Assembly: GCF_045037415.1 (NCBI RefSeq) | Contig: NZ_CP173438.1 | Source: Escherichia coli | GTDB lineage: Bacteria; Pseudomonadota; Gammaproteobacteria; Enterobacterales; Enterobacteriaceae | DNA length: 64,000 bases | Strand: one strand, 5' to 3' | Part shown: positions 36,294 to 53,391 of the stretch, piece after piece | How positions within the stretch are numbered: position 1 is the stretch's first letter | How the letters are laid out: the number at the start of each line of letters is the position of its first letter | Made by a program: the position numbers and the translations under genes | The notes under the pieces: model-generated | The model's database searches: none | What the model saw: the letters and a program-made list of their open reading frames with translations, nothing else | Told to the model about the DNA's origin: nothing

Positions 36294-38318
<2,025 letters not shown>

Positions 38319-40587: not shown

Positions 40588-41352
40588 TCAGAAATTAAAT
40601 TTGATGGAGTAGATTATCGCATCCTGGTAAAAATCTTCGCCCAGTTTGTCATCCGCATAACGATACTGAATCCCTGTGGTGATGTGTGAAGTTGCATTCC
40701 ACCAAAGTGCGACGGCACCGTTCAGACCTTCTTTGCCGCCATTACCTGCCGCGTAGGTGGCATCACGATCAAACTCGTACTCGTTCCAGTTGGTGAGGGT
40801 GAATTTCTCACTGCCCAGCATAAAGCTGTAACCTGCAACCCAACCGGCGACATAACCGTTATCGCCGGTATAATAGGTTTGGTCTGTATAGCGTTTTGCA
40901 AAGAACGGTTTGAACCACCAACCGCTGCCGGTGAAATTGTAGCCGATCCCGTAAAGGAACATATCGTCATGGAAATTTACACGATTCGCAGAACCGTAGG
41001 TGCCATACGCATGCAAGTAGAGATTAAATCCGGTGTCACCCAGGTAAATACGGTTGGTATTTTTAAATGTATAACGCTGCTCGCTACCCGGTTTATCATG
41101 ACGATCATTATAAAAGTTTTCCCAGTCGAAGAACCCGTACATTTCTCCCCAACTAAAGTTAGCGCCGCCTTCCAGTTCCAGATATCCAAAATCATCTTTG
41201 TGTGATTTGGTCGACGATTTCTCAGTGGTTCTGCTAGTCCAGTCAAGATAATGAATACCTATATCAGCAAAACCGCCTTTAAATTCTGCATGGGATACTG
41301 CTGGTATCGCCAATACAGAAGAGAGTGTCAGAGTAAAAAGATGTTTTTTCAT
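40588..41352 (-). CDS. yfeN: Tsx-like outer-membrane nucleoside channel protein YfeN
   Basis: 254 aa; signal peptide, aromatic-rich beta-barrel-like sequence ending in F. Confidence 0.85.
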   Translation of the reverse strand: MKKHLFTLTLSSVLAIPAVSHAEFKGGFADIGIHYLDWTSRTTEKSSTKSHKDDFGYLELEGGANFSWGEMYGFFDWENFYNDRHDKPGSEQRYTFKNTNRIYLGDTGFNLYLHAYGTYGSANRVNFHDDMFLYGIGYNFTGSGWWFKPFFAKRYTDQTYYTGDNGYVAGWVAGYSFMLGSEKFTLTNWNEYEFDRDATYAAGNGGKEGLNGAVALWWNATSHITTGIQYRYADDKLGEDFYQDAIIYSIKFNF

Positions 41353-50566: not shown

Positions 50567-50600
50567 TAAAAAAGCCGGGGAATTATCCCCGGCTTTTTTA
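50567..50600. terminator. bidirectional intrinsic terminator between convergent pdeA and nupC
   Basis: gccgggg aattat ccccggc hairpin flanked by A6 and T6. Confidence 0.8.
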
Positions 50601-50609
50601 TGTATGGTC

Positions 50610-51812
50610 TTACAGCACCAGTGCTGCGATTGACGCAGACAGCACACTCACCAGGGTAGAGCCGTAAACCAGTTTCAGACCGAAGCGAGAAACCACGTTA
50701 CCTTGCTCTTCATTCAGGCCTTTAACCGCACCCGCGATAATCCCGATTGAAGAGAAGTTAGCGAAGGAAACCAGGAACACAGAGATGATGCCTTCCGCAC
50801 GCGGAGAGAGCGTGGAAGCAATTTTCTGCAGATCCATCATCGCAACGAATTCGTTGGAAACCAGTTTGGTCGCCATGATACTGCCCACTTGCAGTGCTTC
50901 ACTGGAAGGAACACCCATCACCCATGCAATCGGATAGAAGATGTAACCCAGGATGCCCTGGAAGGAGATGCTGTAGCCAAACCAGCCAGTCACGGTGGCA
51001 AACAGTGCGTTCAGCGCGGCGATCAGGGCGATAAAGCCGATCAGCATCGCCGCAACGATAATGGCAACCTTGAAACCTGCCAGAATGTATTCACCCAGCA
51101 TTTCGAAGAAGCTCTGACCTTCGTGCAGGTTGGACATCTGAATATTTTCTTCACTGGCATCAACACGGTAAGGGTTGATCAGCGACAGCACGATAAAGGT
51201 GCTGAACATGTTCAGTACCAGCGCCGCAACGACGTATTTCGGCTCCAGCATGGTCATGTATGCACCAACGATGGACATCGACACGGTGGACATCGCCGTT
51301 GCTGCCATGGTGTACATACGATTGCGGGAGATTTTGCCGAGGATATCTTTATAGGCAATAAAGTTTTCAGACTGACCCAGAATCAGGGAGCTGACGGCGT
51401 TAAAGGATTCCAGTTTGCCCATGCCGTTGACTTTGGAGAGCAGGAAACCAATTGCGCGGATAATCACCGGCAACACGCGAATGTGCTGGAGAATACCGAT
51501 CAGTGCAGAGATAAAGACGATTGGGCACAGCACTTTCAGGAAGAAGAATGCCAGGCCTTGATCATTCATGCTACCAAAGACGAAGTTAGTCCCTTCGTTG
51601 GCAAAACCGAGCAGTTTTTCGAACATTTCGGAGAAGCCTTTCACGAAGCCCAGACCAACGTCGGAGTTCAGGAAGAACCACGCCAGTAACACTTCGATAA
51701 CAAGCAGTTGAATAACATAACGGATACGAATTTTTTTGCGGTCGCTGCTTACCAGCAGTGCGAGAATCGCAACAACGGCAAGTGCCAGTACAAAATGAAG
51801 GACGCGGTCCAT
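50610..51812 (-). CDS. nupC: nucleoside:H+ symporter NupC
   Basis: 400 aa from internal ATG ([13 protein letters not shown]...); ORF-track start is an upstream GTG. Confidence 0.9.
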
Positions 51813-52087
51813 ATTTGCTCCAAATATGAGGCAGGTTAAATTTCCGTGCACATTCTATGTAACATGGTTAAGGAAAACGAGATCTTGACACACACTATAA
51901 TGACGTCCTGTGACAAGCTTAAGCAAAAATAGTGATTCTGTCATACATTTCTGCTATGTTGTGTATGGAAGCGGAAGGTTATGTAAATGTGCTAATATTA
52001 AACATAACCATAACATTCGAGTCATCTATCTTTTCGTAGTCATAATCCTGGTCTATCAGAGAAATCATCACAACCCATTTAAATGAA

Positions 52088-52106
52088 TTTGATAATCATT
52101 CTCATT
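52088..52106 (+). promoter_or_regulatory. Fur box in mntH promoter
   Basis: tttgataatcattctcatt closely matches the Fur consensus GATAATGATAATCATTATC; about 50 bp upstream of mntH ATG. Confidence 0.6.
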
Positions 52107-52118
52107 TAACGTAGCATG

Positions 52119-52140
52119 AAACATAGCAAAGGCTATGTTT
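52119..52140 (+). promoter_or_regulatory. MntR operator palindrome in mntH promoter
   Basis: aaacatagc aaa ggctatgttt, near-perfect inverted repeat of the MntR-box type, 13 bp upstream of mntH ATG. Confidence 0.65.
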
Positions 52141-52143
52141 TAG

Positions 52144-53391
<1,248 letters not shown>

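Follow-up and report, generated by a model that had tools for sequence, protein, structure and literature searches.

For the control of mntH in E. coli K-12, Patzer and Hantke (2001, J Bacteriol 183:4806) are said to have placed Fur on a stretch of 22 nt by operator titration, and a DNase I footprint of theirs reportedly put MntR on a nearly perfect palindrome. According to reviews of the Escherichia coli system, mntH has separate MntR, Fur and OxyR sites, with Fur and MntR repressing the gene independently of each other, and the interactions of all three regulators at mntH are curated in RegulonDB; mntH also belongs to the Fur core regulon that has been defined by ChIP-exo and expression data in nine E. 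coli strains, and the expression of mntH-lacZ depends on fur. In Salmonella, mntH and sitABCD are regulated by Fur, MntR and OxyR, as is summarised in a review, and sigma-S counteracts both repressors, Fur and MntR. Established since 2001-2002, this architecture explains how E. coli restricts its manganese import to conditions of iron or manganese shortage, or of peroxide stress.

Here, we have compared the region upstream of mntH in the window, i.e. the whole 64-kb stretch of DNA that was analysed, with these described systems. The window is a segment of the E. coli chromosome with the gene order maeB-eut-cys-pts-xap-gltX-pdeA-nupC-mntH-ypeC-yfeO-glk; the product of mntH matches the Pfam family Nramp (PF01566, E = 2e-128), and the 801-nt query that covers positions 51600-52400 is matched in 5,424 of 5,426 complete E. 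coli genomes, with a top identity of 99.4%. The intergenic region between the divergent genes nupC and mntH is 340 bp long, and both operators are located within its final 65 bp; the ATG of mntH (52153) lies 12 nt past the MntR palindrome, and the gap between the two contains a GAGG Shine-Dalgarno sequence. The elements of the locus are the following, with the data from which each was assigned in parentheses:

52153-53391, plus strand: coding sequence of mntH, an Nramp Mn2+/H+ symporter of 412 aa (open reading frame; annotation in RefSeq of the E. coli genomes that match)
50610-51812, minus strand: nupC coding sequence, the divergent neighbour (list of open reading frames, where the annotated start reads MDRVLHF...; annotation in RefSeq, as for mntH)
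52082-52100, no strand assigned: distal Fur site, the second of the cluster (18.4 bits), 6 bp from the main site
52088-52106, no strand assigned: main Fur box, a 9-1-9 site, TTTGATAATCATTCTCATT, with the 7-1-7 core TGATAATCATTCTCA at 52090-52104
52089-52094, plus strand: predicted -35 hexamer TTGATA, inside the Fur box (promoter scan; invariant in 81 sequences)
52112-52117, plus strand: predicted -10 hexamer TAGCAT (promoter scan; TAnnnT across species)
52119-52140, no strand assigned: MntR operator AAACATAGCAAAGGCTATGTTT, i.e. AAACATAGC-AAAG-GCTATGTTT, which covers the predicted transcription start at about 52124
52143-52147, plus strand: Shine-Dalgarno sequence GAGGC (read from the sequence; 93-100% conserved across species)

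An earlier note had recognised a Fur-box-like element and an MntR-type inverted repeat directly upstream of the mntH start codon, and both are found exactly at the positions that are listed above. The arms of the repeat, which the note had called near-perfect, are in fact perfect over 9/9 positions and enclose a 4-nt centre; its division into 9-3-10 was off by one base (9-4-9), a trivial difference.

The comparison of the Fur element with consensus sequences is only marginally informative: it agrees with GATAATGATAATCATTATC at 15/19 positions, a count that is equalled in 8% of random 64-kb windows and is hence not significant, and with the 7-1-7 consensus TGATAATnATTATCA at 13/14 positions, which is equalled in 1.5% of random windows. 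For this reason, a position weight matrix from footprinted sites has been used instead, built from the 12 footprinted K-12 regions of Table 3 of Chen et al. (2007), with mntH left out; the regions were taken from NC_000913.3, and each contributed one aligned 19-mer. On this matrix, the main Fur box (52088-52106) reaches 24.2 bits, the top match in the 64-kb window and a score that is attained by 0.5% of random 64-kb windows; it is followed by the distal site (52082-52100) with 18.4 bits, and then by a match of 13.0 bits, while the training sites themselves range from 12.7 to 26.9 bits, with a median of 21.6. The two overlapping sites, in a 6-bp register, form a multi-dimer cluster of the type seen in footprinted E. 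coli promoters, and the main 19-mer is the middle of a 31-bp imperfect palindrome (52079-52109), of which the distal site is also part. In Table 4 of Chen et al. (2007), mntH is listed with 19.9 bits and two sites, in a 25-bp cluster that is centred at -56; this centre corresponds to position 52097 of the window, i.e. to the centre of the 19-mer at 52088-52106, and the two-site cluster is reproduced here.

The motif of the palindrome, aRAyATAGC-N4-GCTATrTTw, is common to mntH and to the other known MntR targets of K-12, mntS and mntP (Waters et al., 2011). The MntR operator of mntS/rybA, AGATATAGCACAGGCTATATTA, is located at the rybA/mntS start, and two operators, GAATTTAGCCAAAGCTATGTTT and AGACATAGCTTAGGCTATATTA, are located upstream of mntP, where MntR reportedly activates, whereas it represses at mntH; among these four MntR sites (mntH, mntS and the two of mntP), the one at mntH alone has perfectly symmetric 9-nt arms. 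The three K-12 sites other than that of mntH (one from mntS, two from mntP), found by an arm-pattern search of the mntS-mntR and mntP upstream regions, have been used for a symmetrised leave-one-out matrix, from which mntH was excluded. The mntH palindrome scores 26.2 bits on this matrix, with the next match in the window at 14.0 bits and the maximum of 200 random windows at 18.0 bits; the two elements of the earlier note thus both pass the matrix scan that it had proposed as a check.

The rarity of the palindrome has been dropped as an argument for an operator: equally perfect 9-bp arms occur at about 13 loci of the window, several of which are GC-rich, flanked by A or T runs and terminator-like. 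Since consensus counts and palindrome rarity are both weak, the significance of the Fur and MntR sites rests on motif match, position and conservation. A second MntR site, or looping through half-site copies, has likewise been rejected: the copies TGCTATGTT (51952-51960) and AAACATAACC (52000-52009) score below 10 bits on the MntR matrix, the first coincides with an extended -10 in front of a mapped transcription start, and the second contains the start at 52006.

Two further palindromes of the window may be mentioned in their own right. A perfect palindrome of 28 bp, CGCTTACCCTGAATATTCAGGGTAAGCG, which has neither a loop nor a flanking T-run, is located between maeB and eutS (522-549). Another perfect palindrome, GC-rich and with an A-run and a T-run at its flanks, separates the ends of the convergent genes pdeA and nupC (50570-50597) and looks like a bidirectional intrinsic terminator.

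In order to follow the region across species, species-representative genomes have been scanned with MntH as the protein query, and the 80 loci obtained were aligned to the window (81 sequences, including the window); the loci span Escherichia, Citrobacter, Salmonella, Enterobacter, Klebsiella, Raoultella, Buttiauxella, Kosakonia and other genera. The presence, positions, scores and conservation of the sites are observed here, and their binding and regulation are taken from the literature. The main Fur box is 81-100% conserved over positions 52089-52104 (TTGATAATCATTCTCA) in the 80 Enterobacteriaceae species, and the palindrome is invariant over positions 52119-52136 (AAACATAGCAAAGGCTAT) in the 81 sequences, except for one base in one sequence (A52129, 99%). 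In the right arm, position 52137 is G in 26% of the species and otherwise A, while its partner, C52122, is constant; because the mntS and mntP sites also have C or T at this position of the half-site, it behaves as a degenerate operator position. The Fur core and the MntR core, which are about 100% conserved, are separated by the 12 nt between the Fur box and the palindrome (52107-52118), where the spacer positions 52108-52111 agree with the window in 11-23% of the sequences.

As an observation on the leader downstream of the MntR palindrome, the locus of Trabulsiella odontotermitis (L029) has a 16-nt tandem duplication about 20 nt before the mntH ATG, where TATTTCAGAGGCAGAA occurs twice; the duplication doubles the Shine-Dalgarno region.

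The promoter scan has returned the pair TTGATA-17-TAGCAT, with the main Fur box overlapping the predicted, conserved -35 hexamer and the spacer; the distance between the -35 and the -10 is 16 or 17 nt among the 81 sequences. The hexamer at the -10 position occurs as TAGCAT (54 sequences), TAGCTT (11), TAATAT (6), TAACAT (5), TAGTTT (3) and TAGCCT (2), and in all 81 sequences the palindrome begins 1 nt after it; the end of the palindrome is 2 nt before the Shine-Dalgarno sequence. Variation that keeps to TAnnnT at a fixed 1-nt gap is, as judged from the alignment, the signature of a -10 element and, together with the invariant TTGATA, of a -35/-10 pair. From this assignment, we infer an exact start near 52124, relative to which about -42 to -18 would be taken up by the Fur cluster and about -5 to +17 by the MntR palindrome. 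The transcription start table of Kim et al. (2012) has no mntH start from the core promoter, and only the weak upstream starts at -147 and -186; the absence of a core-promoter start presumably reflects repression of this promoter in their media, and the assignment of -35, -10 and +1 therefore rests on prediction plus conservation.

Further features of the same intergenic region are listed below; the OxyR input, the upstream starts, the reading of the palindrome as an RNA terminator and the overlapping small reading frame ypeD are subjects on which the earlier note had been silent.

52042-52078, no strand assigned: candidate OxyR site, ATAA-N7-CTAT-N7-ATCA-N7-CCAT, ending 10 bp before the -35
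51952-51960, plus strand: TGCTATGTT, an extended -10-like element that belongs to a weak promoter further upstream, with a mapped start at 51967
51990-51998, plus strand: TGCTAATAT, a partly conserved element of the same kind in a second weak promoter, with a mapped start at 52006
52083-52109, plus strand: ypeD remnant, ATG plus 7 codons plus TAA (K-12 annotation b4819, alignment, translation)

The OxyR consensus consists of four ATAG-type elements with a 10-bp spacing, ATAGnTnnnAnCTAT-N7-ATAGnTnnnAnCTAT, next to the -35. The candidate site has this spacing and agrees with the consensus at 13/20 positions, the best match of the intergenic region and one that 21% of random sequences equal; its conserved columns are 52042-43 and 52053-66. 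An OxyR site upstream of the -35 is plausible, with the string at 52042-52078 being a candidate only, as far as the sequence goes.

Of the two upstream starts of Kim et al. (2012), the one given in their Table S1 at K-12 position 2510914, i.e. at -186 from the mntH ATG (51967 of the window), has 11 reads, and the one at 2510875, i.e. at -147 (52006 of the window), has 5. The element in front of the former, TGCTATGTT, follows a TGnTAnnnT pattern that is conserved at 86-99% across species, and also repeats, letter for letter, the right half-site of the MntR palindrome.

On the opposite strand, Kim et al. (2012) have mapped an antisense start with 13 reads at position 52165 of the window, which they assign to nupC with a 348-nt leader; it begins in codon 5 of mntH, and its transcript crosses the MntR and Fur operators. 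Closer to nupC, the intergenic blocks 51843-51866 and 51909-51936 are 98-99% conserved. The former coincides with the nupC core promoter (mapped start at 51845, -10 TAGAAT), and the remaining nupC-proximal conserved blocks are presumably regulatory sites of nupC, of the CRP/CytR type.

In K-12, ypeD has 29 codons, running from an ATG inside the Fur palindrome across both operators into mntH (2188-2277 on the minus strand of locus L001 in our set). In the window, a TGG to TAA change ends the frame after 8 codons; this exact 90-nt allele is found in 719 of 5,425 E. coli records (13% of the complete ones), the K-12 allele is found in 3,330, and the annotation pipeline PGAP gives only an 18-aa ypeD remnant in strains that carry the TAA allele. 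Translation of ypeD, together with putative homologues in Salmonella and Citrobacter, has been reported by Stringer et al.

Several readings of this DNA other than a pair of operators have to be weighed. If the Fur-like string were an AT-rich -35 and spacer that resembles a Fur box by chance, the iron control of mntH would be indirect; the consensus count, which random windows reach so readily, leaves room for this, and two further strings of the window (36351-36369 and 41247-41265) also agree with the classical Fur consensus at 15/19 positions. These two, however, stay under 10 bits on the matrix from footprinted sites and have been rejected as chance matches, as against 24.2 bits for the main box, which has a canonical partner in the 6-bp register; moreover, the conserved block runs past the -35 hexamer, to 52104, and the information-theory site of Chen et al. 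(2007), the Fur ChIP-exo data and the fur-dependent expression are all contrary to a chance likeness, which we regard as extremely improbable. It is hardly more credible that both blocks are conserved as a coding constraint on ypeD and not as operators, even if the K-12 RefSeq annotation places ypeD over exactly both operators and the data of Stringer et al. speak for its translation and its homologues. The frame varies by species, with 8, 11, 23, 24, 25, 29, 31 or 43 codons, and is also reduced to 8 codons in three other Escherichia lineages; in most genera, a 1-nt difference in the spacer shifts it over the palindrome, whose DNA is nevertheless invariant; the variation at its three codon positions (0.083, 0.121 and 0.078) has no third-position excess; and the stop-containing allele is carried by that same 13% of the complete E. 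coli records. Since the frame shifts over fixed DNA with no such excess, the apparent conservation of YpeD is a by-product of the operators: its conserved pieces, MNLIIIL and KHSKGYV, are translations of the Fur box and of the MntR palindrome, respectively.

For the palindrome, a function at the level of RNA has also been proposed: in RNA from the upstream starts, AAACAUAGC-AAAG-GCUAUGUUUU could form the terminator-like hairpin of an Mn2+ 'OFF' riboswitch, besides or instead of binding MntR, a reading that we consider doubtful. It goes back to Shi, Zhao & Kong (2014), who, as their work is summarised in two reviews, described a terminator-like structure in the mntH 5' UTR of Salmonella, acting as an Mn2+ 'OFF' riboswitch, which is said to be conserved in enterics and present in E. 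coli; in these summaries, the terminator stem is the very same palindrome, and such a hairpin is thermodynamically plausible here, since an RNA that contains it would fold stably (11 bp, -12.4 kcal/mol, z = -7.1). The mntH-strand starts at -147 and -186 in K-12 lie behind the extended -10-like elements, of which TGCTATGTT is conserved and TGCTAATAT partly so, and the ribosome-profiling signal of ypeD likewise implies transcripts that enter the region from upstream. Against this, the starts that the hairpin needs are weak (5 and 11 reads), and a transcript from the predicted core-promoter start would lack the left arm. Among 77 distinct sequences, the covariation score of the hairpin is 0.015, with a shuffle mean of 0.013; all departures break pairs, save for three cells in which the variable pair furthest out, 52118/52141, changes from G-C to A-U. 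In four pairs, unpaired cells are the only departures, and the pair C52122-G52137 is C.A in 58/77 sequences. The alternative partner (copy 1, which overlaps the -10) varies as a -10 hexamer and not as a helix. The stem contains 3 G-C pairs among its 9-11 pairs and is followed by only 4 U, which are themselves paired in the minimum free energy fold; the terminator scan has found nothing at the palindrome, and the scan of 51700-52300 with Rfam 15 (E<=1) has returned only a sub-threshold match to a eukaryotic snoRNA. Finally, the same motif occurs at mntS and mntP, which are reportedly regulated by MntR, and this contradicts an RNA hairpin as the sole function. The locus thus differs from the riboswitch, as the reviews present it, by the lack of covariation, by a stem that is broken in most genera and by the lack of an Rfam family that matches it. 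We conclude that it is the operator function that explains the conservation of the palindrome; an RNA-level layer in only those genera that have the C-G pair (Escherichia, Salmonella and Citrobacter) is possible, if rather unlikely.

Taking the three readings of the same 60 bp together, i.e. operators, RNA hairpin and ypeD, we lean slightly towards the view that only the operators are selected, with ypeD as a translated, non-conserved by-product and the riboswitch stem as a feature that would be, at most, lineage-restricted. For the annotation of small proteins, this is a caution that the conservation of a short open reading frame can derive wholly from overlapping transcription-factor sites.

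Returning to the operators, we are highly confident that the region is the core promoter-operator of E. coli mntH, a sigma-70 promoter under two independent metal-dependent repressor sites. Fe2+-Fur on the paired, overlapping boxes (52082-52106) would cover the -35 and most of the spacer, and its occupancy would exclude RNA polymerase when iron is sufficient, a steric mechanism that we infer from the positions of the sites. Mn2+-MntR, a dimer of the DtxR family, would block open-complex formation or promoter escape from 52119-52140 when manganese is sufficient. Since the two sites do not overlap and are 12 bp apart, either metal alone could repress; activation by peroxide probably comes from an OxyR site that immediately precedes the -35. 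The co-repression by iron and manganese that the earlier note had proposed is supported by the two matrices, the site of Chen et al. (2007), the recurrence of the MntR motif at mntS and mntP, the conservation in 80 species, the reviews and the ChIP-exo data, and the note was right in treating the architecture as a known one and as a positive control, as it is the published regulation of E. coli mntH.

The comparison with E. coli K-12 places the window at the same mntH locus, with the same neighbours, nupC and ypeC, and with identical Fur sites, -35, -10, palindrome, Shine-Dalgarno sequence and start codon. The differences from K-12 are four substitutions in the spacer (52105, 52108, 52109 and 52111), one of which creates the TAA of ypeD, and small indels further upstream; in addition, K-12 has an IS186 beside nupC, which the window lacks. 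The Fur and MntR (plus OxyR) control region of mntH is thus already known, with nothing novel about it, and its value is mainly that of a control, where the operators have been recognised in raw sequence and placed to the base.

The mntH (Kehres et al., 2002) and sitABCD (Ikeda et al., 2005) promoters of Salmonella enterica have OxyR, Fur and MntR motifs, with the same order and content of elements as in the window. The mntH loci of Salmonella in our set (L012 and L013) have TTGATAATCATTATCA and an identical palindrome, with the same distance to the ATG as in the window, while their Fur box is one base nearer to the consensus (ATTATCA) than that of the window. In the layout that is attributed to Kehres et al. 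in 2002, OxyR is said to bind immediately before the -35 and Fur on the -35 itself, with the inverted repeat located between the -10 and the ribosome-binding site, and the geometry that we have derived here agrees with this layout.
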